The notes: a model not told the origin generated them from the sequence alone. DNA of 64,000 bases from Dehalococcoidia bacterium (GCA_048539495.1 JBLYPS010000003.1:31486-95485), one strand, 5' to 3'; counted from the first letter of the stretch, positions 44,622-64,000 are shown. Made by a program: numbers and translations.

Positions 44622-44689
44622 CCTATCTTTATTTATATACTAATTCGTTATATGGTTCAAGCTAAACATCTGTGAGGCTTTATTTACGC

Positions 44690-44889: not shown

Positions 44890-44921
44890 GGGACTAACCT
44901 GTCTTGTTCTATTCCCGAACT

Positions 44922-46853: not shown

Positions 46854-46882
46854 TTGACAATGCCGGCTAGAAATGCTTTAAT
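46854..46882 (+). promoter_or_regulatory. Putative sigma70 promoter of the str operon (TTGACA-17-TTTAAT)
   Basis: 'ttgaca' at 46854-46859 and 'tttaat' at 46877-46882 sit about 45 nt upstream of the rpsL ATG. Confidence 0.45.
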
Positions 46883-46926
46883 AGAAAGTTGTTGCCCATT
46901 AGTGGTGCGAGAAGGAGGAAAAGGCT

Positions 46927-47349: not shown

Positions 47350-47413
47350 GTCCAACGGTTCAAGGTTCAACGGTTCAACAGTTACAAGTCCCAACCGTGA
47401 ACCATGAACCGTC
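47350..47413. repeat. Family D palindromic repeat (GGTTCAA-type units vs GAACCGT)
   Basis: The sequence is 'ggtccaacggttcaaggttcaacggttcaacagttacaagtcccaaccgtgaaccatgaaccgtc'. It lies between rpsL and rpsG. Confidence 0.55.
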
Positions 47414-47462
47414 TTTATGATAGAAGCGGTTGAAATTAAGTTTTCGGATAGGGTACAGAAAA

Positions 47463-47933
47463 ATGCCAAGACGAGGTAAAGTAGTCAAGAGAATAGCACC
47501 GCCGGATGTGAGATATCACAGCGAGAAGATAACCCGGCTTGTCAATCGGATCATGATCGATGGCAAGAAGAGCAAGGCCGAGCGGATTGTCTACACGGCA
47601 CTGGACATAATAAAGGAGCGAGTCGAGAGGGATCCTCTGGAGGTCTTCGAGGAGGCGATCAAGAATACCACACCGCTCCTGGCAGTTAAGCCGCGCCGCA
47701 TCGGGGGAGCCACCTATCAGGTTCCGGTTGAGGTACCTCCGGAGCGAGGTCTGTTTCTCGCGATGCGCTGGCTGGTGACCACCGCCAGGGCACATAAAGG
47801 CAAGCCAATGGCAGAGAGGCTGGCAGCGGAGATAATGGATGCCTCTCGCAGTGAGGGCATCACTGTTAAGAAGCGTATAGATACCCACAAGATGGCGGAG
47901 GCGAACCGGGCTTTTGCTCACTATCGATGGTAA
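47463..47933 (+). CDS. rpsG: 30S ribosomal protein S7
   Basis: '[10 protein letters not shown]...' matches S7. The start is at the internal ATG of the predicted ORF. Confidence 0.95.
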
Positions 47934-48011
47934 CGAGTATTGAGTATCGAGGAGGGGAGAGGGGGGAGGTGGGTGGCCTCAGAACTCAGAACTCGAAACA
48001 CTGAGGAAGGA

Positions 48012-50093: not shown

Positions 50094-50128
50094 GGTCGCC
50101 CCCACGCGGGGACGTGGATTGAAAAAAG

Positions 50129-50437
50129 ATGCCAAAACAAAAAATCAGGATCAAACTAAGGTCTTACGATTATCGGGCACTGGATCAATCGGCGGCTCAT
50201 ATAGTTGAGGCGGCGGAAAGCACCGGGGCTGCGGTGGTGGGGCCTGTGCCTCTACCCACCCATATCAAGAAGTTCTGCGTTATCCGCTCGCCGGTGATTG
50301 ATAAGGACTCTCGGGAGGAGTTCGAGATCCGCACTCATAAGCGATTGATAGATATACTCGATCCGACATCGAAGACGGTCGATTCCCTCACCCGCCTCAA
50401 TCTGCCCGCCGGCGTGAGCATCGAGATAAAGGTCTAA
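50129..50437 (+). CDS. rpsJ: 30S ribosomal protein S10
   Basis: '[18 protein letters not shown]' matches S10. It follows fusA directly, with no tuf in between. Confidence 0.95.
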
Positions 50438-50512
50438 TGGGTAGTGGGTAATGGGTAATGGGGGCTACGGGGTACCCCTATAACCTATGACCTATCACCT
50501 ATTACCCAGGAT
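50438..50512. repeat. Family C palindromic repeat ((GGGTAAT)n - GGGGTACCCC - (CTATNACC)n)
   Basis: The sequence is 'tgggtagtgggtaatgggtaatgggggctacggggtacccctataacctatgacctatcacctattaccc'. The rpsJ TAA stop lies in the adjacent 'ctaatggg'. Confidence 0.6.
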
Positions 50513-50516
50513 TAAT

Positions 50517-51146
50517 ATGTTCTCTGGAATTTTAGGTAAAAAGATAGGCATGACCCAAATCTTTGCCGAGGACGGCACCGTGGTGCCGGTTACGGCCATC
50601 GAAGCGGGTCCCTGTATGGTGACGCAGGTCAAGAGCATGGATACCGACGGATATAATGCCGTCCAGCTTGGATTTGGAGAGTCCAGGCGATTGAACAGAC
50701 CTGAGATGGGACATCTCAAAAAGTTGGGGGCATTCCGGCACCTGCGTGAATTCAGATTCGAGGATATCTCCGCAATCGCGCCTGGACAGAAGGTAAATGC
50801 CGATATATTCCAGTCCGGCGACATCGTTGATGTAATCGGCACTTCGAAGGGAAGGGGATTTGCCGGGGTAGTAAAACGACATCATTTCAGCGGCGGGCCG
50901 AAAACGCACGGACAGTCCGATCGACACCGTGCCCCTGGATCCGTCGGGAGTGGTACCGATCCCGGTAAGGTATGGAAAGGACAGCGCATGGCCGGACATA
51001 TGGGCAATGCCTGGGTCACAGTCAGAAACCTTAAGGTGATAATGGCCGACCCCGACCGAAATCTGCTTCTCGTTCGAGGGGCAGTGCCCGGGGCCAGAAA
51101 TGGTTTGTTGATTATCAAGAAATCAACGAGAGGCAGATCAACATGA
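50517..51146 (+). CDS. rplC: 50S ribosomal protein L3
   Basis: 'MFSGILGKKIGMTQIF' matches L3. Confidence 0.95.
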   Translation: MFSGILGKKIGMTQIFAEDGTVVPVTAIEAGPCMVTQVKSMDTDGYNAVQLGFGESRRLNRPEMGHLKKLGAFRHLREFRFEDISAIAPGQKVNADIFQSGDIVDVIGTSKGRGFAGVVKRHHFSGGPKTHGQSDRHRAPGSVGSGTDPGKVWKGQRMAGHMGNAWVTVRNLKVIMADPDRNLLLVRGAVPGARNGLLIIKKSTRGRST

Positions 51147-51188
51147 CCAAAGCGGCCAATTATCTTGTCTTAGGCGTGGGGTGACATA

Positions 51189-51851
51189 ATGCAAGTTTCA
51201 GTGTATAATACTCAAGGGGCAGTAGTAGGACAGCTTGATCTAGATGAGAGGGTCTTTGCCGTGCCCATGAATGAGGCCATCGTTCACCAGGCACTGGTGA
51301 GACAGCAAGCTAACGCACGCGTGGGCACTGCCAGCACTAAGACGCGCAGCAACGTGTCCGGAAGTGGTCGCAAGCTGTATCGCCAGAAGCATACTGGCCG
51401 GGCGCGAGCGGGGGACTTAAGGTCGCCACTGCGTCGTCATGGAGGCATAACATTTGGACCCCACCCCCGGAGTTACCGGCAACAAATGCCCAAGAAGATG
51501 CGTCGCCTGGCGATAAGGTGCCTGCTCTCAGCAAAGGTATCGGACGGGGAACTGAAGGTGATAGATAAACTGGAGATGAGCGAACCCAAAACCAGGGACA
51601 TGATCAGCATGTTGCAAACATTAGGGATTGACCGCTCGGCGCTCATCGCTTTATCCTCACCGAATGCCAGCGTGGTCAGGTCGGCGAGCAATGTCAAGGG
51701 AGCCAAGATAATTCAAGCTCGACTACTAAACGTGCTTGACCTGCTAACGTATGGCGGTCTAATAATCACCGCCGATGCCGTGCGTGTGGTGGAAGGACTT
51801 TGGGGAGGTGAATCGAGATGCATATCTACGAAGTGCTCCGCCGACCGGTGA
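51189..51851 (+). CDS. rplD: 50S ribosomal protein L4
   Basis: The L4 pattern is present. The 3' end overlaps the rplW start by 34 nt. Confidence 0.9.
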
Positions 51852-52096
51852 TCACCGAGAAGAACACCGACCTGATGACCCGGAACAAGTACGTTTTTGA
51901 GGTTATGAAAAGTGCTAATAAGGATCAGGTCAAAGCCGCAGTGGAGAAAGCCTTCAAGGTCACGGTTGTCTCGGTAAACACGGTCATGGTTCACAGCAAG
52001 CCCAGGGGCTACGGGAGGCTTAAAGGACACCGTCCATCCTGGAAGAAGGCCATTGTCACCCTTATGGAGGGAGATAAGATCGAGATATTTGGGTAA
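51818..52096 (+). CDS. rplW: 50S ribosomal protein L23
   Basis: '[14 protein letters not shown]' matches L23. The terminal Gly and TAA stop are encoded by the first GGGTAA unit of the downstream repeat. Confidence 0.95.
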   Translation: MHIYEVLRRPVITEKNTDLMTRNKYVFEVMKSANKDQVKAAVEKAFKVTVVSVNTVMVHSKPRGYGRLKGHRPSWKKAIVTLMEGDKIEIFG

Positions 52097-52172
52097 TGGG
52101 CAATGGGTAATGGGGTGTTACGCGGTACCCCTATAACCTATGACCTATAACCTATAACCTCGGATAAACATG
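52090..52172. repeat. Family C palindromic repeat
   Basis: The sequence is 'gggtaatgggcaatgggtaatggggtgttacgcggtacccctataacctatgacctataacctataacctcgg'. Confidence 0.6.
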
Positions 52173-52997
52173 GGAGTCAAGATATATAAGCCAACATCGC
52201 CAGGCAGAAGGGACATGACTGGCCAAAGCTTCAGTGAGCTGACTAGAAAGAAGCCAGAGAAATCGCTCGTGGTGCCCATGCGCAAGAAAGGCGGCCGCAA
52301 TAACCAGGGGCGGATAACGGTACGGCACCGCGGTGGGGGTGCGAAGAGAAACTACCGCATTATTGATTTCAAGCGAGATAAATTTGACATTCCCGGCAAA
52401 GTGGCTGCCATAGAGTATGATCCCAACCGCTCGGCGCACATCGCCCTTATCCACTATGTTGATGGCGAAAAGCGATATATCCTCGCTCCACTGAAGCTCA
52501 AGGTCGGAGCGGAGATTATGTCAGGCAGAAATGCGGAGATCATGGTGGGAAATGCCTTGCCGCTCCGACTCATTCCCGCAGGCACCCCGATCCATAATAT
52601 TGAACTTCAACCGGGCCGGGGGGGACAACTGGTGCGAAGCGCGGGAACATCAGCACAGCTCATGGCAAAGGAGAATGACTATGCCCTGGTACGACTCCCT
52701 TCGAAGGAGATTCATCGTATTCGAGTGGAGTGCATGGCAACCGTTGGGCAAGTGGGAAGCGTTGACCATGATAGCATCAGCCTGGGCAAAGCGGGCAGGA
52801 AGCGACTCATGGGTTGGCGCCCGACCGTGCGGGGTTCGGCCATGTCACCACGTGACCACCCCCATGGTGGTGGTGAGGGAAGAGTAGGGGTAGGTCTCCC
52901 TGGCCCCAAGACCCCCTGGGGTAAGCCCGCCCGCGGTGTCAAGACCAGAAAGAACAAACGTAGCGACAATATGATCGTTAAGAAGTCGAGAGTCTAG
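52170..52997 (+). CDS. rplB: 50S ribosomal protein L2
   Basis: '[16 protein letters not shown]' and 'HGGGEG' motifs match L2. Confidence 0.95.
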
Positions 52998-53031
52998 ACT
53001 CCAGATCAGAGCTAATACGGAGGAAGTTAAC

Positions 53032-53325
53032 TTGGGAAGATCCACGAAAAAAGGCCCATTCGTCGATGTCAAGTTGATGAAGAAGGTGAATGCCCTCAGA
53101 GAGAGCGGGCAGAAAGCGGTGATCAAGACCTGGGCTCGGAGTTCAATGGTCATACCCCAAATGGTTGGGATTACTATGGCCGTTCATGACGGCAGGAGAC
53201 ACGTTCCTATTTTTATCACCGAAAATATGGTAGGGCACAAACTCGGAGAATTCGTCCCCACACGGACTTATCGCGGACACAGCTCCAAGGCAGAGCGAAT
53301 GTCTCGTGGGGGCAAGGGAAAATAG
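53032..53325 (+). CDS. rpsS: 30S ribosomal protein S19
   Basis: 'STKKGPFVD' and '[24 protein letters not shown]' match S19. The gene uses a TTG start. Confidence 0.9.
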
Positions 53326-53370
53326 AGCAAGGGATAAGGGATAGGGGATAACCCCTAACCCATAGCTATG
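53326..53370. repeat. Family C' repeat ((GGGATAA/GGGATAG)n ... CCCCTAACCC)
   Basis: The sequence is 'gcaagggataagggataggggataacccctaacccatagctatgg'. The rplV ATG lies inside its last unit. Confidence 0.5.
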
Positions 53371-53700
53371 GAAGTAAGAGCAACAGCAAAGGGAGTGCGG
53401 GTTTCGCCACAGAAAGCGCGGCGTATTGTCAATTCGGTGCGGGGAAAGATGCCCGATGAGGCTCTGGCTATTCTGAGATTCATGCCTAGCCCGACGGCTC
53501 GCATCGTGGCGCGGGTGGTGAAATCGGCCGCTGCCAATGCAGAGAACAACTTCAAGATGTTGCCGTCAGAGATTAGAATCGTAAGAGCGTTTGTCGACGA
53601 AGGGTTGAGGATGAAGAGAATCCGTTTTAAGGCCCGCGGAAGGGTAAACCCGATTCTCAAACGCCTCAGCCATATTACCATCGTGGTTGAGGAGAGATAG
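53368..53700 (+). CDS. rplV: 50S ribosomal protein L22
   Basis: 'VRVSPQKARRIVNSVRGK' matches L22. Confidence 0.95.
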   Translation: MEVRATAKGVRVSPQKARRIVNSVRGKMPDEALAILRFMPSPTARIVARVVKSAAANAENNFKMLPSEIRIVRAFVDEGLRMKRIRFKARGRVNPILKRLSHITIVVEER

Positions 53701-54381
53701 ATGGGGCAGAAGGTTCATCCTGTGGGATTCCGACTCGGTTCCTATAAGACCTGGCTATCCAGGTGGCACGACGAAGGGAACTATGCTGACCTATTGCACC
53801 AGGATCTGACCATTCGCAGTACTATTGAATCTCAATATCAAAGGGCCGGCATCTCCCGAGTGGAGATCGAGCGCGGCACCGGTGAAATCACCGTCATCAT
53901 CAATACCTCCAGGCCAGGGATAGTCATCGGACGTGGTGGGCAGAGGGTTGACGAGATGAGAGGGCTCTTGCAAAAACTGACTATGAAGAAGATTCATCTG
54001 AATATTCAAGAGATTCGAGAGCCAGACCTCGATGCTTACCTGGTAGCCAGAAATATCGCCGACCAACTTGAGAGAAGAATCTCTTATCGCCGGGCGGTAA
54101 AGCGGGCTATCTCCCAAACTATGGAGGCTGGGGCCAGGGGAATAAAAGTCAGGATCGGCGGGAGGCTTGGGGGGCATGAGATCGCTCGACGCGTAACGGA
54201 GCACCAGGGCAGCGTTCCGCTTCACACCCTGTGCGCCAACATTGACTACGGTCTTGCAGAGGCGCTCACTAATACGGGCAAGATTGGGGTGAAGGTCTGG
54301 ATTTATAAAGGCAATTTTATCCCCGAGTCCCGCCGCGTAGCCGAGGTAGGAGTATTGGAACCCGCCCAAGAAGGCAGTTAG
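53701..54381 (+). CDS. rpsC: 30S ribosomal protein S3
   Basis: 'GQKVHPVGFRLG' and KH/S3-C domains are present. Confidence 0.95.
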   Translation: MGQKVHPVGFRLGSYKTWLSRWHDEGNYADLLHQDLTIRSTIESQYQRAGISRVEIERGTGEITVIINTSRPGIVIGRGGQRVDEMRGLLQKLTMKKIHLNIQEIREPDLDAYLVARNIADQLERRISYRRAVKRAISQTMEAGARGIKVRIGGRLGGHEIARRVTEHQGSVPLHTLCANIDYGLAEALTNTGKIGVKVWIYKGNFIPESRRVAEVGVLEPAQEGS

Positions 54382-54416
54382 ACTGAAGGCTGAAGACTGT
54401 TAGATTACTTCAGCCC
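54381..54416. repeat. Family B palindromic repeat
   Basis: The sequence is 'gactgaaggctgaagactgttagattacttcagccc'. The rpsC stop is embedded. Confidence 0.45.
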
Positions 54417-54426
54417 ATCTAGAAAA

Positions 54427-54903
54427 ATGTTGCAGCCAAAGAGAGTAAAATTTCGTAAGAGCCAGCGTGGCCGTCGCAGGGGCAAGGCATACTCGGGCAA
54501 CATGGTGGACTTCGGCGAGTTCGGATTGCAGGCTCTCGAGCCAGCCTGGATCACCAGTCGCCAGATCGAGGCCGCCAGGCGGGCCATCGTGCACCATATC
54601 AAGCGCGGAGGTCAGGTTTGGATTCGTATCTTCCCGGACAAACCGGTCAGCGCCCGGCCGCCAGAGACTAGAATGGGCAAGGGTAAGGGGCCGGTGGATC
54701 ACTGGGTGGCAGTGGTGAAACCGGGCAGAGTGCTATTTGAGATCGCCGGCATTCGCGAGGACACGGCACGAGAGGCGCTGCGCCTAGCCTCACATAAACT
54801 TCCTATTTCTACCCGGATGATTACAAAAGAACAAAGGATAGCCACAGAGGTCACAGAGAAAATGAATCAAAAGAATCTCTCTGTGTGCTCTGTGGCTGAA
54901 TAA
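54427..54903 (+). CDS. rplP: 50S ribosomal protein L16 with a repeat-encoded C-terminal tail
   Basis: '[16 protein letters not shown]' matches L16. The last ~20 residues '[21 protein letters not shown]' are encoded by the family E hairpin. Confidence 0.9.
54836..54903. repeat. Family E hairpin (GGATAGCCACAGAG ... CTCTGTGTGCTCTGTGGCTGAATAA)
   Basis: The sequence is 'ggatagccacagaggtcacagagaaaatgaatcaaaagaatctctctgtgtgctctgtggctgaataa'. A copy is at 62943-63017. Each sits immediately upstream of a small r-protein gene start. Confidence 0.6.
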
Positions 54904-54907
54904 AAGA

Positions 54908-55105
54908 GTGCGAATAAGCGAGATTCGGAAACTGAGTTACCAAGAGTTGACGCGAGAGCTTGAGAGCTCCCACCGGGAGCTTTTTAATCTGCGATTCAGG
55001 GCAGCTACCAGGCAATTGACAAACTATCGTGAGATCAATAAGGTGAAGAAGGATATCGCCAGACTCAAGACGGTGATCCGGGAAACGGAGCTATCGGGGA
55101 GTTAG
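54908..55105 (+). CDS. rpmC: 50S ribosomal protein L29
   Basis: '[25 protein letters not shown]' matches L29. The gene uses a GTG start. Confidence 0.9.
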
Positions 55106-55110
55106 ATGTT

Positions 55111-55368
55111 ATGGGGAACAGACGAACCCTTGTGGGCAACGTGGTGAGCAATAAGATGGATAAGACCGTCGTGGTGATGGTTACCAGACGCCATCAACAC
55201 CCCCACTATAAGAAGTACATTGAGGAGAGCAAGAAATTCAAGGCCCATGACGAGACTAACGCCTGCAATGTCGGTGATAGGGTAAAAATCATCGAAACGC
55301 GACCCCTATCCCGGGAAAAGCGTTGGAGAGTGGCCGAGGTCCTGGCTAAAAAGGCTGAAGGAGGCTAA
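55111..55368 (+). CDS. rpsQ: 30S ribosomal protein S17
   Basis: '[16 protein letters not shown]' matches S17. The C-terminal 'AEGG' and the stop are encoded by the family B repeat. Confidence 0.95.
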
Positions 55369-55391
55369 TAGCCTAACAGTCTTCAGCCTAT
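55352..55391. repeat. Family B palindromic repeat
   Basis: The sequence is 'aggctgaaggaggctaatagcctaacagtcttcagcct'. Confidence 0.5.
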
Positions 55392-55412
55392 CCGCCTACG
55401 AAATGAGGAATC

Positions 55413-55781
55413 ATGATTCAGATATACACCAGACTTAAAGTTGCGGACAACACCGGCGCGCGGGAAATCATGTGTTTCAACATCCCCGGAGGTACGAAGA
55501 GAAGATATGCGACGGTGGGGGATTTGATCGTGGCCTCAGTTAAGGAGACCGTACCCGGTTCTGCAGTCAAGAAAGGGGAGGTAGTGCGAGCGGTGGTGGT
55601 CCGCGTGGTGAAGACATATGGCCGTCGCGATGGCTCGCATATCCGGTTCGACGAGAATGCCGCGGTTATCTTAGACGAAAGAGGAAATCCCAAAGGTAGC
55701 CGCATATTTGGTCCCGTAGCGCGAGAGCTTCGGGAGAAGAATTTCATGAAGATTGTCTCGCTGGCCCCCGAGGTACTGTGA
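55413..55781 (+). CDS. rplN: 50S ribosomal protein L14
   Basis: '[17 protein letters not shown]' matches L14. Confidence 0.95.
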
Positions 55782-55806
55782 CGGGCAAGATGCCCGTCCT
55801 ACGAAG

Positions 55807-56121
55807 ATGAGAAAAATACGAAAGAATGACGAGGTGGTGGTAATCTTGGGAAGGGATCGGGGAAAGAAAGGGAAGGTTCTGATCTCTACCCCGGACGCCG
55901 ATCGTCTGATAGTCGAAGGGGTCAACATGATCAAGCGCCATACGAAACCCGGGCGTACCATGAGACAAGCCGGAATCATCGAGCGAGAAGCGACGCTGCA
56001 CATCTCCGATGTGAAGTTGATCTGCAAGAAGTGTAACCAGCCTAGCCGGGTTGGGTTTCGTCTCCTGGAAGACAGGAGCAAGGTCAGATTTTGCAAGAAA
56101 TGCCATGAGGTGATCGATTAA
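55807..56121 (+). CDS. rplX: 50S ribosomal protein L24
   Basis: '[24 protein letters not shown]' matches the KOW motif of L24. The start is at the internal ATG. Confidence 0.9.
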
Positions 56122-56669
56122 TGGCTCAGATGCCACGACTTAGGCAGAGGTACCTCCAGGAAATAGCCCCTCAGATGATGAAGGAGCAGGGATACCGAAG
56201 CATAATGAGAGTGCCACGTCTGGAGAAGATCGTGCTCAACATAGGTCTGGGCGAAGCTATCCAGAACCCTAAAGCTCTGGAAGCAGCCTCTAACGACCTG
56301 GCGACAATCTCGGGACAACGCCCGGTGACTACCCGCGCCAGGAAGTCGATAGCTGGCTTCAAGCTGCGCCAGGGCATGGCTATCGGACTGTCCGTGACCC
56401 TAAGGAATAGGAGGATGTACGATTTCCTGGATCGGTTGGTTAATGCAGTCCTCCCTCGTATAAGGGACTTTCATGGCGTCTCCCAAGATTCCTTCGACGG
56501 CCGAGGTAACTACTCTTTAGGAATAAAGGAGCAGATTATCTTCCCCGAGATAAACTATGCTAAAATAGATAAGATTCGAGGTTTACAGGTTTCTATCGTG
56601 ACTACGGCACGCACCGATGAGGAAGGGAGGCGTCTTCTGGAGCTCATGGGCATGCCCTTTGCTAGATAA
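56121..56669 (+). CDS. rplE: 50S ribosomal protein L5
   Basis: '[15 protein letters not shown]' matches L5. Confidence 0.95.
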
Positions 56670-56743
56670 ACAAGTACTCTGGGTCGTCTCTGACCCAGAG
56701 TACCATCTTCGAGGTCAGGAACGACCTCGAATACGGAGATAAT

Positions 56744-56929
56744 GTGGCGAAGACTTCTCAAATAGTAAAATCACAGAAAACCCCCAAATATGCGGTGAGG
56801 CATAGGAATCGCTGCCGCCTCTGTGGCCGACCCCGGGCCTACCTGCGCTATTTTGAGCTCTGCCGCATTTGCTTCCGAAAGCTGGCCAACGAGGGACTCC
56901 TCCCCGGGGTGAGGAAGTCCAGTTGGTAA
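56744..56929 (+). CDS. rpsN: 30S ribosomal protein S14 type Z (zinc-binding)
   Basis: The 61-aa product has 'CRLCGR...CRICFR' motifs. Confidence 0.95.
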
Positions 56930-56944
56930 TCCAGGAGAGCAACC

Positions 56945-57346
56945 ATGAGTACAACTGATGTTATAGCCGATATGTTAACCAGAGTAAGGAACGCCAATAT
57001 GGTTGGCGCTGATTTCACCCTGGTTCCTTCCTCTAAGATCAAGATCGCCATCGCCGAGGTGATCAAGGATCAGGGATTCATCAAAAATTACGAGATATTG
57101 ATGAGCAATACACCACAGCGGGTCATAAAGATACACCTTAAGTATACTGCGGAAAAGAAGCCGATACTGAAAGGCCTTAAGCGTGTAAGTAAACCCGGTA
57201 TGAGGGTGTATGCAGGAAAAGGGGAAATCCCGCGAGTATATGGCGGATTAGGGATCGCCATTCTCTCTACTCCCCAGGGGATAATGGTGGGAAAAGAGGC
57301 ATGGAGGAAAGGCATTGGCGGGGAGATTCTATGCTATGTATGGTAA
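56945..57346 (+). CDS. rpsH: 30S ribosomal protein S8
   Basis: 'TDVIADMLTRVRNA' matches S8. Confidence 0.95.
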   Translation: MSTTDVIADMLTRVRNANMVGADFTLVPSSKIKIAIAEVIKDQGFIKNYEILMSNTPQRVIKIHLKYTAEKKPILKGLKRVSKPGMRVYAGKGEIPRVYGGLGIAILSTPQGIMVGKEAWRKGIGGEILCYVW

Positions 57347-57352
57347 GAGACG

Positions 57353-57898
57353 ATGTCGAGAGTAGGTAGAAAGCCGATACCAGTACCTGAAGGGGTTGAG
57401 GTGAACTTTAAGAGAGGCGAGATTTTCGCCAGAGGACCCCGGGGAACGCTCAGCCGTTCCATACCCCCCGATATGTTGATTGAACTTAGTAATGGGGTTC
57501 TCACAGTATCAAGGCCTACAGACAATAAGATCCACCGCTCCCTTCACGGCCTCACCAGGACGCTTATCGCCAACATGGTTCAAGGGGTAAGCGAGGGATT
57601 TCAAAAGGGTCTGGAGGTCATGGGAGTGGGATACCGAGTCCAGATTTCGGGAGAGAAACTGATCTTCCAACTGGGTTATTCCCGTCCTGTCGAGATCTCG
57701 GCTCCAGCAGGTATATCATTTAGTGTCGAAGGAACCAATAAAGTGATAGTCTCAGGGATCGATAAGGAGCTGGTGGGTAAGGCATCAGCGCAGATTAGAG
57801 CGCTGAGATCACCCGACCATTACAAAGGTAAGGGCATACGTTATTCCGGCGAGCGAGTGCGTCTCAAGGCAGGCAAATCAGGGAAGGCGAGAGAATAG
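57353..57898 (+). CDS. rplF: 50S ribosomal protein L6
   Basis: 'MSRVGRKPIPVPEGVEV' matches L6. Confidence 0.95.
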   Translation: MSRVGRKPIPVPEGVEVNFKRGEIFARGPRGTLSRSIPPDMLIELSNGVLTVSRPTDNKIHRSLHGLTRTLIANMVQGVSEGFQKGLEVMGVGYRVQISGEKLIFQLGYSRPVEISAPAGISFSVEGTNKVIVSGIDKELVGKASAQIRALRSPDHYKGKGIRYSGERVRLKAGKSGKARE

Positions 57899-57976
57899 GC
57901 ATTCAGCCATCAGTCAGTAGGTCGATTTTCCAAAGCGACGTTTTTGTCGAGATATGAACCTCGACCCAACAATATT

Positions 57977-58345
57977 ATGACAAGTGCGATAGACACCAGA
58001 GCTAACCGAAGGAAGCGGCATCTGCGGACTCGAAGGAAGGTCCGGGGTACGGCTATCAGGCCTCGTCTTTGCGTTTTCCGCAGCCTGAAGTATGTCTATG
58101 CCCAGCTTCTGGATGATACATCGGGGCAGACACTGACGTCAGCTTCCTCGATTGATCCCGAGTTGAGGGCACATACTCAATCTAAGACCAAGACCGAGGA
58201 TGCTAGACTCGTGGGCGCATTATTGGGCCGGCGAGCCCAGGATAAGGGAATTGAGCAGGTTGCCTTCGACCGTGGGGGATACAAGTATCACGGCCGGGTT
58301 AAAGTACTGGCAGAGGCAGTTAGAGAAACGGGACTAAAATTCTAG
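57977..58345 (+). CDS. rplR: 50S ribosomal protein L18
   Basis: '[26 protein letters not shown]' matches L18. A TTG at 57944 is an alternative start. Confidence 0.9.
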
Positions 58346-58395
58346 GGATAAGGGATAGGGGATAACCCATAACACTTAACCCCTAGCGGATTGAA
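58346..58395. repeat. Family C' repeat (GGGATAA units)
   Basis: The sequence is 'gggataagggataggggataacccataacacttaacccctagcgg'. The rplR TAG stop lies in the leading 'ctaggg'. Confidence 0.5.
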
Positions 58396-58401
58396 ACAAA
58401 G

Positions 58402-58938
58402 ATGAATGAAAGAATTGATCCAGAGGGACTAAGCCTGACTGAGACGTTGGTTCATGTCAGACGAGTGGCCAAGACGGTGGGCGGAGGGCGAAAACTTTCC
58501 TTCAGTGCCCTGGTAGTGGTTGGCGATAATCAGGGTCATGTAGGCTCCGGCCTTGGCAAGGGCAAAGAAATTCCGGTGGCCATCGGAAAGGGGACAGCCG
58601 CAGCCAAGAAGAACCTTATTCGGGTGCCGATGAATGGGAGCACTATTACTCACGAGATAACTGCCAAGTTTGGCGCTGCTAAGGTCTTGCTCAAACCAGC
58701 AGCCCCTGGAACCGGAGTGATTGCCGGCAAGGCAGTCCGATCCGTGATTGAGTCCGCCGGGATAAAGGATATCCTGAGTAAATCGCTGGGCAGCACTAAT
58801 CCTATCAATGTAGTTCAGGCGACTATACGCGCGCTGAGCGAGCTAAAGGATCCGAAACGAGAGTCAAGAGTCCAGACTCCAGAGTCGAGAGTCAAGGAGG
58901 GAGGGGAACTCCAGAATCCACTTGACATTGTCAGATGA
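58402..58938 (+). CDS. rpsE: 30S ribosomal protein S5 with a repeat-derived C-terminal extension
   Basis: An S5 dsRBD and C-terminal domain are present. The tail '[28 protein letters not shown]' is encoded by a heptamer array (58858-58900) and the end of the MITE-like element. Confidence 0.9.
58858..58900. repeat. Heptamer array with G-rich core inside the rpsE 3' end
   Basis: The sequence is 'gagtcaagagtccagactccagagtcgagagtcaaggagggagggg'. Confidence 0.55.
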
Positions 58939-59040
58939 GGTGGTAACGATGAATTTCTTTCTGTCATTGCGAGCGAAGCGAAGCAATCTCGGTGGCAGGG
59001 AGGAGATTGCTTCGTCGCCTTCGGCTCCTCGCAATGACAT
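58921..59040. mobile_element. Partial copy of the MITE-like element (family A hairpin plus one terminal inverted repeat)
   Basis: 'cttgacattgtcag' matches the left terminal repeat of the 3838-4101 element. The hairpin pairs 'gtcattgcgagcgaagcgaagcaatctc' with 'gattgcttcgtcgccttcggctcctcgcaatgac'. It supplies the rpsE stop codon. Confidence 0.55.
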
Positions 59041-59060
59041 GGGAATGGGGCAAGAGAAGA

Positions 59061-59264
59061 ATGGAGATATCTAAACTGCGCATTACCTGGAAGAGGAGCG
59101 CTATCGGTTATCCCAGCAATCAAAGGAGGGTGGTCAAGGCCCTAGGATTTCGCTTGTTGAACGACGTAGTTGAGCATAATGATTCGGCACAAATTCGCGG
59201 CATGATCAGGAAGATCCGGCATCTGGTCGAGGTGGAAGAAATCGGACGGGAAGGTGAGGCTTGA
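59061..59264 (+). CDS. rpmD: 50S ribosomal protein L30
   Basis: 'LRITWKRSAIGYPSNQRRVVKALGFRLLND' matches L30. The start is at the ATG at 59061, immediately after the hairpin. Confidence 0.9.
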   Translation: MEISKLRITWKRSAIGYPSNQRRVVKALGFRLLNDVVEHNDSAQIRGMIRKIRHLVEVEEIGREGEA

Positions 59265-59707
59265 AACAGAACGAGTTGCGTCCCGCGGCAGGGTCCAAAC
59301 ATAAACGGAAGAGGGTGGGCCGTGGCCCCGGCAGCGGCCACGGCACCTATTCCTGCCGTGGCATCAAGGGACAGAAGTCTCGATCTGGGGGCGGGGTTCG
59401 CCCACTCTTTGAAGGGGGACAGAATCCCCTGGCTAAGCGATTGCCCTACAAGAGAGGTTTTACCAATATCTTCCGTACGGAATATGCCATCGTTAATGTA
59501 GAGCGATTAAATGTCTTTCCTGAGGGTGCGGAGGTAACCCCACAGGAGCTGGTATCCGCCGGGATCCTCAAAGGGCTCAGTGACCCAATCAAGATTCTGG
59601 GGCAGGGTGAGCTCACTCACCAGTTAGTGGTCAAGGCCAACAAGTTCTCACAGGCGGCTAAGAATAAGATAGAGGGTGCTGGGGGAAGAGTGGAGGTGAT
59701 CACCTGA
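59261..59707 (+). CDS. rplO: 50S ribosomal protein L15
   Basis: 'KRVGRGPGSGHGTYSCRGIKGQKSRSGGG' matches L15. Confidence 0.95.
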   Translation: MKQNELRPAAGSKHKRKRVGRGPGSGHGTYSCRGIKGQKSRSGGGVRPLFEGGQNPLAKRLPYKRGFTNIFRTEYAIVNVERLNVFPEGAEVTPQELVSAGILKGLSDPIKILGQGELTHQLVVKANKFSQAAKNKIEGAGGRVEVIT

Positions 59708-59733
59708 TGCAACGTTCAGGAGGAGGGGGCGGG

Positions 59734-61056
59734 ATGCCCAAATTACTGCAGGCCGTGATGGACTCCCTCCGTCACCCCGAATTGAGGCGGAAGCTACTTT
59801 TCACCTTCGGCATTCTGGTGATTTTTCGCTTTATGGCCCATATTCCGCTGCCGGGGGTGGATGCAGTGGCACTCCGTAAGCTTTTCGATGCGGGGGATAT
59901 GCCACTCTTAGGTATGCTCGACCTCTTCACAGGGGGGGCATTACGGAACTTCAGCATAGTCGCCGTGGGGATTTTCCCCTACATAACTGCCTCGATCATA
60001 ATGCAGCTTCTGGTGCCGGTGATTCCCCAACTTCAGGCGCTGTCTAAAGAAGGAGAGGGCGGGAAAAACAAACTGAAGCAGTATACTCTCTGGCTGACTG
60101 TCCCCCTGGCTATGCTTTCGGGGTATGGGCAATTGGTCCTCTTCAGTCGGCCCCTGGTGGCGGGGATAGAGCCTGCCATCAGAGACGTCGGCTTCCAACT
60201 CCCCACGATATCAATGGTGCTTTCTCTCACGGCGGGCACGATGCTGCTCGTATGGCTCGGGGAACGCATCACCGAGAGCGGCATCGGTAATGGCATCTCG
60301 ATAATCATTTTCGGCGGGATCGTGGCCGGGATGCCCGAGCAAATGATGCTCACACACGAGGTTGCTCGGATCGGCGGCCTGCTGAGCCTGATTATATTGA
60401 TGGTTGTCATTGCCCTGTTGATAGTGTTTGTGACTGAGGCCAGCCGGCGCGTTCCGGTTCAGTATTCACGAAGCACCTTCCGTGGCGGAAGGGTTTATCG
60501 TCAGAGCGGGGGGACGCACATTCCCCTTAAGGTAAACTCCACCGGCATGATCCCCATCATCTTTGCTTTCGCCATAATAATGTTTCCCCCAACGATAGCC
60601 AGCTACTTTGCTAATCCCGTGGGGCAAGATCCCAACCTTGCTAATTGGATTCAAGATGCCTTCAACCCCGCAGGAGACTATTGGTGGGCTTACTATGGAT
60701 TTCTTTTCCTCCTTGTCGTTGGCTTTACCTTCTTCTACACGATAGTTACCTTCGAGCAGCAGAATATCCCCGAGACTTTACAGAAACAAGGGGGTTTTAT
60801 TCCGGGTATTCGCCCCGGGAGGTCAACGGCAGAGTACGTTAATGGAGTTCTTATGCGAATAACCTGGGGCGGGGCGATATTTCTGGGGTTCATAGCGATC
60901 TCGCCGGTGGTTGCCCAGTGGGCTGCCGGTGTCGACGTCCCCGTTATGATTATCGGGGGGGTGGGATTGCTCATTGCGGTCGGGGTGATTCTCGATACCA
61001 TGAGGCAAATGGAGGCGCAGCTCCTGATGCGTCATTACGAAGGATTCATTAAGTGA
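59734..61056 (+). CDS. secY: Preprotein translocase subunit SecY
   Basis: A 10-transmembrane SecY profile is present. The start is probably MPKLLQAV, preceded by an AGGAGG site. The ORF in the track extends to 59707. Confidence 0.9.
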   Translation: MPKLLQAVMDSLRHPELRRKLLFTFGILVIFRFMAHIPLPGVDAVALRKLFDAGDMPLLGMLDLFTGGALRNFSIVAVGIFPYITASIIMQLLVPVIPQLQALSKEGEGGKNKLKQYTLWLTVPLAMLSGYGQLVLFSRPLVAGIEPAIRDVGFQLPTISMVLSLTAGTMLLVWLGERITESGIGNGISIIIFGGIVAGMPEQMMLTHEVARIGGLLSLIILMVVIALLIVFVTEASRRVPVQYSRSTFRGGRVYRQSGGTHIPLKVNSTGMIPIIFAFAIIMFPPTIASYFANPVGQDPNLANWIQDAFNPAGDYWWAYYGFLFLLVVGFTFFYTIVTFEQQNIPETLQKQGGFIPGIRPGRSTAEYVNGVLMRITWGGAIFLGFIAISPVVAQWAAGVDVPVMIIGGVGLLIAVGVILDTMRQMEAQLLMRHYEGFIK

Positions 61057-61127
61057 ACGGGTTCAAGGCTCAGAGTTCAAGGTTCAAGGTTGAACCGTGA
61101 ACCGTGAACCGTAAACCGTGAACCGCA
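61054..61127. repeat. Family D palindromic repeat ((GGTTCAA)n / (TGAACCG)n)
   Basis: The sequence is 'tgaacgggttcaaggctcagagttcaaggttcaaggttgaaccgtgaaccgtgaaccgtaaaccgtgaaccg'. The secY TGA stop is its first unit. Confidence 0.6.
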
Positions 61128-61151
61128 ATAATTATTATGGAGGCTGAATAA

Positions 61152-61802
61152 ATGAACATCATTCTTCTTGGTGCCCCCGGGGCAGGCAAGGGAACTCAAG
61201 CAGAGATAATCTCTAAAGGCTTGGGGCTGGCTCATATCGCATCCGGTGATCTTTTTCGACAGGCACAGAACAGTGGAACGGAGCTGGGGAATATCGCCAG
61301 GTCTTATATGGAGAGAGGCCTCCTGGTTCCCGATGAGGTGACGGTTAAAATGGTTCTGGAACGTATCGCCGCACCCGATTGTGGCCAAGGTTTCATTCTG
61401 GATGGCTTCCCTAGAACCCTGCAGCAGGCTGAGGCGCTGGAGGCAGCCTTGAGAGCGGAGAATAAGGGCATAGACAGAGTGCTTTACGTCAAGGTGTCGA
61501 GGGAGGAGCTGGTCCGGCGACTCTCCGGACGCTGGATTTGCCGCGATTGCCAGGCGCCGTATCATGCAATCGCTAAGCCCCCGAAAGTGGCGGGCAAGTG
61601 CGACCACTGCGGAGGAGAGCTTTACCAGCGTCCTGACGACGCCGAGGAGACCGTACAAAAACGCATAGAGGTCTATCTCTCTCAGACCGCTCCCCTGATC
61701 GGCTATTATGCTGAGAAGGGGAAGCTCCTGGAGGTAGAGGGTGCTCAGAGTGTGGAGAGGGTGAGCCAGGAGGTACTCGCTGCCCTCAGTATGCAGCGTT
61801 AG
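61152..61802 (+). CDS. adk: Adenylate kinase (with a Cys4 LID zinc motif)
   Basis: 'ILLGAPGAGKGTQA' and 'CRDCQAPYH...CDHCGG' motifs are present. Confidence 0.95.
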   Translation: MNIILLGAPGAGKGTQAEIISKGLGLAHIASGDLFRQAQNSGTELGNIARSYMERGLLVPDEVTVKMVLERIAAPDCGQGFILDGFPRTLQQAEALEAALRAENKGIDRVLYVKVSREELVRRLSGRWICRDCQAPYHAIAKPPKVAGKCDHCGGELYQRPDDAEETVQKRIEVYLSQTAPLIGYYAEKGKLLEVEGAQSVERVSQEVLAALSMQR

Positions 61803-61889
61803 GAATTTAGGCTTTAGCCTTTCACTGAGCCGAGTGAAACCCTGAAGGGTTAATTCCAGAGCATAAAGCTGAAGTAGCCCCGACTAACA

Positions 61890-62636
61890 ATGGGTATCAT
61901 AATTAAGTCGCCAAACGAAATAAATATAATGCGCCAGGCAGGACGGATCGTAGCAACTATTCTCGCTGCCTTGAAAAGCGAGGTGAGGTCGGGCATAAGC
62001 ACCGGGATGCTGGATGCTATTGCCACACGGATGTTTCAAGAGTACGGGGCACGGGCGTCGTTCAATGGGTACCGAGGTTTTCCGGCCTCTATCTGCACAT
62101 CAGTGAACGAAGAGGTGGTTCATGGCCGGCCGGGGGGGAGAGTCCTTCAAGAAGGCGATCTGATTGCCATCGATGTGGGAGCGATATATAATGGTTTTCA
62201 GGGAGATGCGGCGATAACCGTGGGAGTGGGCCAGATAAGCCCCGAGGCGGAAAGTCTCATTGATACCACTCGCCGGTCTCTGGAAGCGGGTATCGCGGCA
62301 GCCCGCGAAGGGGCTCGTCTGAGCGACATTTCAGCGGCGATCCAGTTATGTGCCGAGTCCAATGGTTTCTCGCCGGTAAGACAATATGTGGGGCACGGGA
62401 TCGGTCGACAGATGCACGAAAAACCGGAGATTCCCAATTTCGGGCCGCCAGGCAAAGGGCCGATATTGAAACGAGGCATGACTCTGGCCCTGGAACCAAT
62501 GATCAACGCCGGCGGCTGGGCCACCAAGGTGCTCCCCGATCGCTGGACGGTGGTCACGGCCGATGGCAGCCTTTCGGCACATTTCGAGCATACCATCGCT
62601 ATCACCAATGGTGCAGCGGAGATACTGACTGTGTGA
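61890..62636 (+). CDS. map: Methionine aminopeptidase type I
   Basis: 'CTSVNEEVVHG' and 'DIGAIYNGFQGD' match metal-binding motifs of the enzyme. Confidence 0.9.
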   Translation: MGIIIKSPNEINIMRQAGRIVATILAALKSEVRSGISTGMLDAIATRMFQEYGARASFNGYRGFPASICTSVNEEVVHGRPGGRVLQEGDLIAIDVGAIYNGFQGDAAITVGVGQISPEAESLIDTTRRSLEAGIAAAREGARLSDISAAIQLCAESNGFSPVRQYVGHGIGRQMHEKPEIPNFGPPGKGPILKRGMTLALEPMINAGGWATKVLPDRWTVVTADGSLSAHFEHTIAITNGAAEILTV

Positions 62637-62716
62637 TGGGTGATGGGTAATAGGTAATGGGTGATGGGGGTTACGGGGTGCCCCTATAACCTATAACCTA
62701 TGACCTATAACAAGGA
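62634..62716. repeat. Family C palindromic repeat
   Basis: The sequence is 'tgatgggtgatgggtaataggtaatgggtgatgggggttacggggtgcccctataacctataacctatgacctataacaagg'. The map TGA stop is its first unit. Confidence 0.6.
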
Positions 62717-62719
62717 TTT

Positions 62720-62938
62720 ATGGCGAAAAAGGAAGCTATTGAGGTTGAGGGCACGGTGGTCGAACCCTTGCCCAATGGCATGTTCCGCGTGGAGTTGCCC
62801 AACGGGCACCTGGTATTAGCCCATGCATCGGGGAAAATGAGGCGCTATTTCATCAAGGTCGTGCGGGGGGATCGGGTTTTGGTGGAACTCTCGCCTTACG
62901 ATCTCTCACGAGGACGCATTACCTACCGTTTTAAGTAA
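62720..62938 (+). CDS. infA: Translation initiation factor IF-1
   Basis: '[21 protein letters not shown]' matches the S1-like IF-1 fold. Confidence 0.95.
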
Positions 62939-62942
62939 CAGA

Positions 62943-63017
62943 GGATAGCCACAGAGATCACGAATCAGAAGTAGGCAATCTTTAAGGAGTCGCTCTGTGT
63001 GCTCTGTGGCTGAATAA
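62943..63017. repeat. Family E hairpin, second copy (upstream of rpmJ)
   Basis: The sequence is 'ggatagccacagagatcacgaatcagaagtaggcaatctttaaggagtcgctctgtgtgctctgtggctgaataa'. Confidence 0.6.
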
Positions 63018-63022
63018 ATGAA

Positions 63023-63136
63023 ATGAAAGTCCGAGCTTCGGTTAAGCCCCGCTGTAACAAATGCAAGATTGTGAAACGTAAGGGCGTGGTGCGGGTTATT
63101 TGCTCTAATCCCAGGCATAAGCAGAGCCAAGGATGA
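63023..63136 (+). CDS. rpmJ: 50S ribosomal protein L36
   Basis: It encodes [37 protein letters not shown] (37 aa). It is not in the ORF track because it is under 60 aa. Confidence 0.9.
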
Positions 63137-63235
63137 TAGGTGATAGGTGATAGGTGATGGGTGATGGGTGATGGGGGTTACGCCGTACCCCTATTACCTA
63201 TTACCTATGACTTCTGGGGTAATGGGTAAAAGGAG
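63134..63235. repeat. Family C palindromic repeat ((GGTGATA)n/(GGTGATG)n ... GGGGTTACGCCGTACCCC ... (CTATTACC)n)
   Basis: The sequence is 'tgataggtgataggtgataggtgatgggtgatgggtgatgggggttacgccgtacccctattacctattacctatgac'. The rpmJ TGA stop is its first unit. Confidence 0.6.
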
Positions 63236-63240
63236 TAGAA

Positions 63241-63630
63241 ATGGCACGTATTGCAGGCGTTGACATTCCAGCGAACAAACAAGTCGAGATATCCCTTCGC
63301 TATATCTATGGAATTGGGCCTACGTTGAGCAAGAGGATACTAACCCAGACCGGCATTAATGCCAGCACCAGGGTTAGAGACCTTAGCGACGAGGAACTCA
63401 ATCGCCTCCGTGAAGTCATCAATAAACAATACAAGGTCGAGGGTGACTTAAGGAAAGAAGTCACCTTCAATATCAAGCGCTTCATTGAAATGGGGAGTTA
63501 CCGGGGGTTAAGACACCGGAGAGGACTTCCCGTTCGTGGTCAGAGGACCAAGACCAATGCTCGAACCAAGCGCGGGCCGGCCAAGACCGTGGCTGGCAGA
63601 GGTCGGCGACGGGGCATGACGAAGAAATAA
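63241..63630 (+). CDS. rpsM: 30S ribosomal protein S13
   Basis: '[18 protein letters not shown]' matches S13. Confidence 0.95.
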
Positions 63631-63700
63631 GGAGGTGATTGGTGATTAGTGATTGGTGATTGGGGTTACGAGGCTCTAATTACCAATCACTAATTACCTT
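63631..63700. repeat. Family C-like palindromic repeat ((GGTGATT)n ... (TAATTACC)n)
   Basis: The sequence is 'aggaggtgattggtgattagtgattggtgattggggttacgaggctctaattaccaatcactaattacc'. Confidence 0.55.
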
Positions 63701-63706
63701 GTAACG

Positions 63707-64000
63707 ATGGCAGTAAAAAAGAAGAGCGCAGGGATCAGAAAACGTGAGCGCAAGGGGGTAGTGAAAGGTCGCGCTTACATACAGTCAACCTTCAACAATA
63801 CCATGATCACCCTGACTGATGAGAGCGGAAATGTAATCACCTGGGGCAGCTCGGGCACCGTTGGATTTAAGGGATCACGCAAAGGAACCGCCTTCGCCGC
63901 GCAAAGAGCTGCCACCGAGGTGGCACGGCGAGGGATAGAGCACGGTTTACGCCAGATTGACGTGTACTTAAAGGGTCCCGGTAGCGGGCGTGAGGCTGCT
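63707..64000 (+). CDS. rpsK: 30S ribosomal protein S11 (partial, continues beyond the window)
   Basis: '[28 protein letters not shown]' matches S11. Confidence 0.9.

Follow-up and report, generated by a model that had tools for sequence, protein, structure and literature searches.

Repetitive extragenic palindromic sequences (REPs) are located less than 20 bp from the ends of upstream open reading frames (ORFs), and their termini often provide a TAG stop codon; they are also found in-frame in DNA polymerase I, tRNA synthetase and repair genes (Di Nocera et al. 2013, PMC3733652). Heptanucleotide simple sequence repeats (SSRs) are over-represented, and the excess has been ascribed to polymerase slippage (Mrazek 2007, as cited in PMC4679880 and PMC4692102). 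The GGGAATC heptamers of Xanthomonas form inverted pairs able to fold into stem-loops at 70-75 sites and have a mean distance of 28 nt to the upstream ORF and of 160 nt to the downstream one, and both short tandemly repeated repetitive sequences (STRR) and G-rich heptamers are found inside cyanobacterial phycobilisome operons (PMC4692102). TAACTGA heptamers of marine Beggiatoaceae and cyanobacteria carry stop codons in three frames, and some of them overlap the upstream stop (MacGregor 2015, PMC4679880). Rickettsia palindromic elements (RPEs) are inserted in-frame in many housekeeping genes, where they add a tolerated peptide (Ogata et al. 2000, as summarised in PMC10969869). In the literature, nothing specific was found on such elements in Dehalococcoidia or Chloroflexi. 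Here, we describe hairpins with arms of tandem heptamers in a 64-kb stretch of DNA (the window) from an uncultured Dehalococcoidia bacterium (Chloroflexota), in particular in its S10/spc/alpha ribosomal-protein cluster. Besides the window, a few further loci and contigs were examined.

The cluster occupies positions 50129-63707 on the plus strand in the order rpsJ-rplC-D-W-B-rpsS-rplV-rpsC-rplP-rpmC-rpsQ-rplN-X-E-rpsN-H-rplF-R-rpsE-rpmD-rplO-secY-adk-map-infA-rpmJ-rpsM-rpsK. Between rpsJ and rpsK there are 27 junctions, 18 of which carry a hairpin insertion; at 11 of these 18 it is built from heptamer arrays. The other nine junctions are overlapping, very tight or, in the case of rplC-rplD (42 nt), without an obvious hairpin. 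The original prediction for this region had proposed that almost every gap holds a palindrome of tandem units of 6-8 nt. Repeat palindromes are indeed present where they had been located, and the pattern is far beyond chance, but the tandem architecture applies to the 11 heptamer-built junctions: the hairpins at the rplP tail and at infA-rpmJ, rplE-rpsN, rplN-rplX and rpsE-rpmD are not tandem. The unit length, too, has to be corrected. An array detector run at periods 3 to 13 found 27 arrays of period 7 in the window and none or one at every other period, in agreement with Tandem Repeats Finder. The unit is always 7 nt long; a right arm, for instance, consists of CCTATAA and not of CTATAACC. 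About 80% of the arrays fall in the 15% of the sequence that is non-coding.

Arrays are paired as inverted copies around a short core and form hairpins, in which each heptamer typically contributes six paired bases and one mismatch or wobble. One-armed arrays also exist, at 36555-36578 and as (GGGGTCA)2 in fusA. For 14 elements of the region, minimum free energies (MFE) between -11.7 and -46.1 kcal/mol were calculated, with z scores from -1.5 to -10.2 against dinucleotide shuffles. Altogether, the 64 kb contain at least 30 such hairpin elements, short, imperfect and dispersed palindromes that belong to multi-copy families. Family A is represented by four loci in the window with a common GGGGKYTACGNGGTRCCCC, a fifth locus elsewhere in the genome (L087-L089) and one in the relative L006. 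Two loci of family G have 22 identical bases, and families B, C, D and H are likewise multi-copy. In L006, one 33-nt arm is present at two junctions. Members of these families were also found elsewhere in the window and on further contigs of this organism, as expected for a dispersed type of element. Non-repetitive cores and an identical succession of unit variants recur at different, unlinked loci, which shows that whole hairpins have been copied to new places. When metagenome contigs were scanned for the family A core, four loci were found, all from one sample series and only in the BBPD/E/F/G assemblies.

A comparison with relatives revealed how variable the elements are. The contig of the window was found in three DDBJ assemblies and in two assemblies of read sets (L001-L005), and in the closest species representatives RplF is 85% identical. 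Among the ribosomal-protein loci of 80 Dehalococcoidia species, period-7 arrays are limited to the organism's own contigs and its three closest relatives, L006, L007 and L008; in the other 77 Dehalococcoidia, one isolated array is the sole exception. Between the window and L006, about 26 segments of at least 9 nt are inserted or deleted, and nearly all of them are junction hairpins. The same applies to insertions and deletions of this size between the window and L006-L008 over about 14 kb, the hairpins being present or absent by genome. Pairs of non-carriers with similar divergence, used as controls, differ by four to nine such segments, none of which is hairpin-like. Length differences between close relatives are thus almost entirely due to the elements. 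Their occupancy varies by junction among the four genomes. At rpsS-rplV, the window, L006 and L007 carry three different unit families, and only the rpsJ-rplC, rplR-rpsE and rplP elements are common to the window and L006.

Orthologous copies differ by whole units, which points to slipped-strand gain or loss: steps of 7 nt were observed at rpsL-rpsG in comparison with L003, 14 nt at rpsJ-rplC in comparison with L006 and 21 nt inside polA (insertion 2, see below) in comparison with L090. L003 is probably a scaffold that joins two strains; its positions 1-5400 are 99.95% identical to the corresponding part of the window (44926-50282) downstream of an N-gap at rpsJ and 89-95% identical upstream. 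Two candidate causes of slippage were dropped: loss of mismatch repair, as mutL is present, and the polA insertions themselves, as the array-carrying AH-958 lineage of single amplified genomes (L007, L008 and L091, which encodes P0003) has an uninserted polA.

The elements are preferentially located at the 3' ends of genes, as had been proposed. They begin 0-5 nt from the upstream stop codon, and at all 16 measurable junctions the distance from stop to array is shorter than that from array to the next start (p=3e-5). The stop codons adjoin the first unit or fall inside it. When 12 nt were allowed for the ribosome-binding site (subtracted by hand), the bias was still visible at 13 of the 16 junctions. 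It is not confined to tight junctions: the pyrG element begins 1 nt past the stop in a spacer of 427 nt, and a family A copy begins at the pcm stop and is followed by a free stretch of at least 290 nt. The proposed location of the rplV start codon within a unit was not confirmed, since the ATG lies 2-3 nt past the last unit.

The second part of the original prediction, that the repeats supply stop codons and C-terminal residues, holds for rplW, rplB, rplR, rpsQ, rpsC, rplP, rpsE, map and tyrS. By contrast, rpsJ, rpsS, secY, rpmJ and rpsM have the same end and the same stop position in repeat-free relatives, so donation is not needed to explain these five, and for them the prediction fails by its own criterion. 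RplW ends with EIFG* in the window and with EIFGGV* or EIFEGV* in relatives, a loss of two aa, and RplB ends with KKSRV* compared to KKR* in L006. The rplR stop is TAG in both carriers (the window and L006) and TGA in seven of eight non-carriers. RpsC is 1 aa shorter than in repeat-free relatives and Map 0-2 aa shorter than in relatives. RpsQ has gained about 3-4 aa, and its predicted ..AEGG tail is supplied by a family C hairpin. Predicted extensions of RplP and RpsE are also present, albeit with a smaller net effect: RplP has about 20 new residues and a net gain of about 17, whereas in RpsE, for which 28 additional aa had been assumed, about 25 new residues replace about nine, a net gain of about 16. 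Relatives have changed ends of their own, such as ..IGNW* in RpmC and ..RIVGSG* in RpsQ of L006 and a tail on RplC of L007.

All five family C copies hold the stop of the upstream gene within the repeat; TTAGGCTGAAGG gives TAG or TGA in four of them and GGCTAATAG gives TAA at rpsQ. On contig L089, a single (GGGGTTA)3 hairpin is shared by the convergent genes nadE and rho, with the nadE stop in one arm and the rho stop adjoining the other. Eleven of 15 intergenic elements have stops in all three sense frames, where about 0.3 would be expected according to shuffled sequences. Almost no stops are present on either strand of the D family (GGAGTCT/GACTCTC), and it is this family that is found inside ORFs.

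The most conspicuous in-frame copies are located in polA (24198-27101, minus strand). It encodes 967 aa, about 905 aa being usual in homologues, and carries three in-frame insertions that are polymorphic among relatives with 88-92% identity. Insertion 1 includes a near-identical copy of the small rplN-rplX hairpin. Insertion 3 places 27 residues where the Klenow fragment has two, five residues before the aspartate of motif A (SADYSQIELR). This position was derived from an alignment with the Klenow fragment, as an AlphaFold2 model based on nine aligned sequences had a mean predicted local distance difference test (pLDDT) score of 44.9 and was unusable to place the insertions. GVWSRESGVWSR is an example of a peptide encoded by the polA inserts. 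The polA gene of L090 contains two copies of one family, separated by about 20 codons. LysS, which has a D-type element, comprises 505 aa in the window and 493 aa in L091. In fusA, encoding EF-G, (GGGGTCA)2 is found at 48868-48884. At the same spot, the same-species assembly L001 (6455-6620) has at least eight (GGGGTCA) copies broken by a scaffold gap, and the related strain L003 has unrelated sequence. The difference may reflect heterogeneity in the population or an assembly problem caused by the array.

Beyond the Dehalococcoidia, exact (GGGTAAT)3 was found in 15 IMG/VR contigs and (GGAGTCT) in about three copies in 70, where about 0.1 would be expected by chance. Most of these contigs have one array and a few are heptamer-rich. 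L224, a siphovirus-type contig with head closure, tail terminator, major tail and tape-measure genes, has long GGGTRAT/CCCTTCA hairpins at 1127-1270, 1726-1900 and 3205-3330 that match family A in unit type and architecture. Two of them start 0-6 nt past the stops of the head-closure and tail-terminator genes; the tail-terminator gene has hairpins on either side, and the major tail gene follows just downstream of them. In L222 (42% GC), a GGGTAAT/CCTATTA hairpin directly follows a TAA stop. As the same units and architecture recur in unrelated contigs, the class is patchily distributed across unrelated genomes; both horizontal spread and a common generating mechanism are conceivable.

How do the elements compare with the systems described so far? 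Like REPs and the bacterial interspersed mosaic elements formed by them (BIMEs, REPINs), they are short imperfect palindromes in many dispersed copies, are placed between ORFs that are unidirectional or convergent, at most about 20 bp from the 3' end of the upstream one, have stop-supplying termini and in-frame intragenic copies, and vary between strains and species. They differ from REPs in that their arms consist of tandem heptamers, the copy number of which varies and is often unequal, with a single mismatch recurring periodically, in that many unit families coexist, and in that the heptamer families have no GTAG/CGTC tag. Furthermore, REPs have a cognate REP-associated tyrosine transposase (RAYT, of the Y1/HUH type), and none was seen among the ORFs of the window or L089. 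In short, the elements behave like REPs in every distributional respect, but have tandem-heptamer arms and lack the defining tag. Miniature inverted-repeat transposable elements are no match, either: neither a target-site duplication nor an insertion sequence was seen, and the whole element is palindromic.

The characteristics of heptanucleotide SSRs and STRR are found here as well, namely a head-to-tail 7-nt unit, copy-number changes by whole units and a mostly intergenic location near the upstream ORF. The cyanobacterial STRR that Mazel et al. studied in 1990 (as cited in PMC4692102) are reportedly composed of several heptanucleotide families that are amplified in tandem and scattered in about 100 copies, also inside operons. 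Both cases comprise several distinct families; the units and the host phylum differ. For STRR, no description of systematic inverted pairing, stop-codon overlap or in-frame insertions was found. The GGGAATC repeats of Xanthomonas and GGGGAYT repeats of Nostoc (Rehm et al. 2015, PMC4692102) share with the elements the tandem 7-nt unit, in Xanthomonas the inverted pairing, the proximity to the upstream ORF and the variation of length and sequence between close species, and G3N4 units such as GGGTAAT and GGGATAA fit a G-quadruplex pattern as they do. Unlike them, the elements comprise many unrelated units that are nearly all paired around a family-specific core, overlap stop codons, have rewritten C-termini, are inserted in ORFs in-frame and reside in Chloroflexota. 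TAACTGA repeats resemble the elements in the stop-carrying heptamer and in a patchy phylogenetic distribution that suggests horizontal spread; in contrast, they are direct repeats of a single unit, mostly oriented toward downstream starts, and form no hairpin. RPEs, according to the summary cited above, are also in-frame palindromic insertions that add a peptide segment, but measure about 100-150 bp, have a conserved family consensus, contain no tandem heptamers and are confined to Rickettsia.

Probably the best explanation is that lineage-specific, REP-like palindromes became dispersed, changed in length by 7-nt slippage and were filtered by selection. The elements would be non-coding imperfect palindromes, both arms being tandem 7-nt arrays that flank a short family-specific core. 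A RAYT-like Y1 transposase and microhomology-mediated template switching are candidates for the copying step. New copies would survive only where they are harmless, i.e. between a stop codon and the next ribosome-binding site, over the last codons of a gene or, provided that the unit is stop-free, in-frame in tolerant parts of a protein. Over 21 nt, tandem 7-nt units bring each of their triplets into every reading frame, so that a unit with a stop codon, such as GGGTAAT, GGTGATA, GGGATAA or GGCTGAA, would re-terminate a clipped ORF within a few codons. The 'donated' stops and short tails would be mechanical by-products of such heptamers, and the observed frame pattern is that to be expected if elements land at random and are then filtered by selection. 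Once transcribed, they are expected to form stable stem-loops without U-tracts and may incidentally affect decay or translational coupling, as REPs do elsewhere. Such an effect would be a consequence and not a demonstrated reason for their presence.

Several observations weigh against this explanation. No RAYT or other transposase was detected by Pfam among about 45 ORFs of the window and L089, and no convincing target-site duplication was seen where filled and empty sites could be compared cleanly, at rplE-rpsN, rplN-rplX, rpsM-rpsK, tyrS or the three polA insertions. A convincing target consensus was not apparent from filled and empty sites. No terminal GTAG/CGTC tag is shared by the heptamer families A, B, C, G and D; the tetranucleotide GTAG was seen only as part of certain units, namely GGGTAGT in the window and (GTAGCGN)n in L006. 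The element of polA insertion 3 has replaced about 14 resident bases, which is not a plain insertion, and it is more conserved than its surroundings, with one difference in about 87 nt compared to 7.5% divergence overall. Deleterious selfish DNA would naively not be expected to occupy an essential, highly expressed operon so densely. The same units and the stop-abutting architecture in the unrelated viral contigs L224 and L222 are not explained by an origin purely within the lineage. Finally, family A folds better in the sense than in the antisense orientation in eight of eight copies, which could indicate selection at the RNA level.

This last point belongs to the strongest competing explanation, according to which the hairpins are selected RNA elements that tune individual genes as mRNA processing sites, barriers to 3' exonucleases or modulators of translational coupling. 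Every element forms a stable RNA fold and is without the U-tract of a terminator, so transcription should read through them. A function as intrinsic terminators was rejected: in addition to the missing U-tracts, a terminator scan yielded 15 sites compared to 16.2 expected, none of them at the sense-strand heptamer hairpins of 46000-64000. The scan did not extend to 24003-24030 (minus strand), where between polA and greA a single-unit D-type hairpin, CTGAGAGTC-GGG-GACTCTCAG, is followed by TTTTTT and, by eye, looks like an intrinsic terminator made from a D-type unit. Likewise, a promoter scan of the region gave no enrichment, and a search of the window at Rfam gathering scores returned two tRNAs and no match to an element.

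In family A, the predicted energies range from -25 to -43 kcal/mol for the sense and from -17 to -29 kcal/mol for the antisense strand, because G.U pairs form only on the transcribed strand. This asymmetry could equally stem from C-to-T deamination of the non-template strand, and it is not general: over 36 elements, 20 fold better as sense and 16 as antisense RNA (binomial p=0.6), and both family B and the phage copies prefer antisense. A further point in favour is the rpsM-rpsK hairpin, which is placed between a GGAGG Shine-Dalgarno sequence (63631-63635) and the rpsK ATG (63707). This GGAGG, the only Shine-Dalgarno-like one, is about 70 nt in linear distance from the start codon. The ribosome-binding site of rpsK may hence be split, and as the hairpin interrupts it, folding may be needed to restore its spacing to the ATG. 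Moreover, the window and L006 share elements, among them those at rpsJ-rplC and rplR-rpsE, hairpins of the same build border the major tail gene in a phage late operon, and STRR and G-rich heptamers inside phycobilisome operons (PMC4692102) provide a parallel. On the other hand, the same operon manages without the elements in 77 other Dehalococcoidia, bar the isolated array mentioned above, and relatives that are about 85-95% identical at the protein level differ in their presence at most junctions. The same families are also found in-frame inside polA, lysS and fusA, where RNA punctuation makes little sense. As the elements are lineage-restricted, variable in presence, also located in coding sequence and without a general sense advantage, a role in RNA processing or stability is not favoured as the reason for their existence and appears unlikely.

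A purely local origin, in which resident heptamers slip and an inverted arm is added by fold-back or template switching without any copying between loci, is quite improbable. It would account for the strict period of 7 and for copy numbers that change in unit steps, and it agrees with the heptanucleotide excess ascribed to slippage in the reports cited above (Mrazek 2007, cited in PMC4679880 and PMC4692102). Stop codons are in phase with the arrays, for instance TGGGTAA in rplW or TGTGTGA before (TGGGTGA)n at map, and the resident sequence at empty polA sites partly resembles units or cores. The one-armed arrays, that of fusA being expanded in L001, also speak for it. A local origin fails to explain why non-repetitive cores and identical successions of unit variants recur at unlinked loci, why L006 has the same 33-nt arm at two junctions and L090 two copies of one family so close together in polA, and why the same unit families appear in unrelated contigs.

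It is a long shot that the elements belong to a distinct, horizontally shared class of 'punctuation', generated by 7-nt-register copying, either transposase-independent or by another enzyme, and targeted to stop-like sequence. Their retention in long operons (ribosomal-protein, phage tail, phycobilisome) would be due to the combination of three-frame stops with a hairpin, which would set segmental mRNA stability and translational coupling. Hints in this direction are the units GGGTRAT, GGAGTCT and GGCTGAA, the 6 bp and one mismatch per unit and the abutment to stops in unrelated viral contigs. Hardly any credence can be given to an artefact or an ordinary feature, be it assembly error in low-complexity DNA, for which the scaffold gap in the fusA array of L001 might speak, intrinsic terminators or a CRISPR-like array, as identical elements are present in five independent assemblies or read sets (L001-L005), related ones occur in metagenome-assembled and single-cell genomes of sister species, and T-tails, an excess in the terminator scan, Rfam matches other than the two tRNAs and a regular spacer structure are all missing.

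Table 1. Hairpin elements identified in the window. Positions are counted from its first base, MFE values are in kcal/mol, and z refers to dinucleotide shuffles.
Element	Position	Strand	Characteristics
Family C element	5735-5811	-	Its TTAGGCTGAAGG end includes the TAG stop of a Mur-ligase gene (5809-7182)
tyrS, family C	11285-11357	-	New tail VNAVSSLLG plus TGA stop; 73-nt insertion compared to L091
serS, family C	14628-14694	-	At serS stop
lysS, in-frame D-type element	23302-23365	-	N-terminal region before OB fold
polA insertion 3, in-frame	24886-24971	-	(GGAGTCT)5, GGGGGGCGAGGGGG, (ACTCTCG)4; about 5 residues before motif A Asp
polA insertion 2, in-frame	25866-25948	-	3'-5' exonuclease domain; (GGCAGTC)5, G-rich core, (ATCAACT)3
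polA insertion 1, in-frame	26130-26219	-	Linker; (GGAGTCT)4, C-rich core, plus small GACGGGCAAGATACCCGTC hairpin
rpsL-rpsG, family B hairpin	47355-47412	+	Differs from L003 by 7-nt steps
Heptamer hairpin (GAGTATY ... CTCAGAA)	47934-47995	+	G-rich core; immediately 3' of rpsG stop
rpsJ-rplC, family A hairpin	50438-50508	+	(TGGGTAA)3, core GGGGGCTACGGGGTACCCC, (CCTATNA)4; starts at base after rpsJ stop; MFE -36.9, z -3.3; shorter orthologous copy in L006
rplW stop, family A hairpin	52090-52160	+	Overlaps rplW stop (52094-52096)
rplB stop, mini palindrome GAGAGTC-TAG-ACTC	52988-53001	+	D-type unit; spans rplB stop
rpsS-rplV, family G hairpin	53329-53361	+	GGGATAA/GGGATAG, GGGGATAACCCC, TAACCCA
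Family C hairpin (ACTGAAGGCTGAAG ... CTTCAGCC)	54382-54415	+	Immediately 3' of rpsC stop TAG
rplP, family H hairpin (AGCCACAGAG ... CTCTGTGGCT)	54839-54898	+	Non-heptameric; codes for 20-residue rplP tail; MFE -32.6, z -6.3
rpsQ, family C hairpin	55352-55389	+	Overlaps rpsQ stop (55366-55368); residues ..AEGG*; z -4.0
rplN-rplX, small hairpin GACGGGCAAGATGCCCGTC	55780-55798	+	Inserted; relatives with TGATGA overlap there
rplE-rpsN, two simple hairpins	56674-56731	+	65-nt insertion; MFE -37.2, z -6.5; absent in L006, L007, L008
rplF-rplR, weak hairpins	57891-57967	+	77-nt insertion; absent in L006-L008
rplR stop, family G hairpin	58343-58385	+	Begins within rplR stop
rpsE, D-type heptamer element	58858-58938	+	AGAGTCN units, G-rich core; new 3' end of rpsE
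rpsE-rpmD, family J long hairpin (GTCATTGCGAGCGAAGCGAAGCAATCTC ...)	58962-59038	+	Non-heptameric; MFE -46.1
secY, family B hairpin (GGTTCAA)n/(TGAACCG)n	61060-61124	+	3 nt past secY stop; z -3.8; absent in L008
adk-map, C-like small hairpins	61813-61880	+	
map, family A hairpin	62637-62711	+	Starts at base after map stop; MFE -37.4, z -4.9
infA-rpmJ, second family H copy	62946-63012	+	
rpmJ, family A hairpin	63137-63213	+	6 left and 3 right units; starts at base after rpmJ stop; MFE -42.7, z -6.1
rpsM-rpsK, family A2 hairpin	63634-63698	+	(GGTGATT)4/(AATYACC)3; perfect 27-bp stem; MFE -38.4, z -10.2

Other repeats were noticed in the window. The long hairpin at 58962-59038, with a second copy at about 3862-3945, has arms GTCATTGCGAG..GAAGCAATCTC. 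Its arm pattern is present in more than 120 IMG/VR viral contigs that stem from many metagenomes, often several times per contig and in inverted pairs, and judging from these matches it is apparently a very widely distributed palindromic repeat. A separate, non-heptameric double hairpin of the REP-like type with a GTAG tag, GGGTAGGGGCGAATAAATTCGCCC .. GGGAGGCTAAAGCCTCCCCTACC, is located at 35104-35157 and 36604-36657, and a similar element, GGGTTCGATAAATCGAACCCCTAC, was found 3' of rpsC in L006. Two long intergenic regions (28544-28750 and 44684-44896) contain a repeat of about 200-300 nt with 86-95% identity that includes short runs of period 7 and 8 (TTAGGAT, CAAATCC, AATGTTCA). A direct repeat of 134 nt with 97% identity is found at 31353-31486 and 34964-35097, one copy at the start of a haloacid dehalogenase (HAD) hydrolase gene and the other in the gap after a cobalamin-related gene. 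In the coding sequence of the leucyl-tRNA synthetase gene leuS (3305-3349), 3.5 copies of a 13-nt tandem repeat (CGGACACGGGGGA) are present; three units amount to 39 nt and keep the frame.

If the proposed origin as dispersed REP-like palindromes is correct, small palindromic repeats are able to invade even the most conserved operon and to settle at two thirds of its junctions. They would have replaced stop codons, added 4-25 new residues to ribosomal proteins and inserted 16-29 residues into DNA polymerase I, next to a catalytic motif. In practice, the elements break assemblies, as in fusA of L001, and mislead gene callers with respect to starts, stops and tails. The lineage would also join two literatures that are usually separate, those on heptanucleotide SSRs and on REP-like palindromes. 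With closely related carrier and non-carrier genomes and with copies in phages, it could help to examine why slippage in bacteria favours units of 7 nt.

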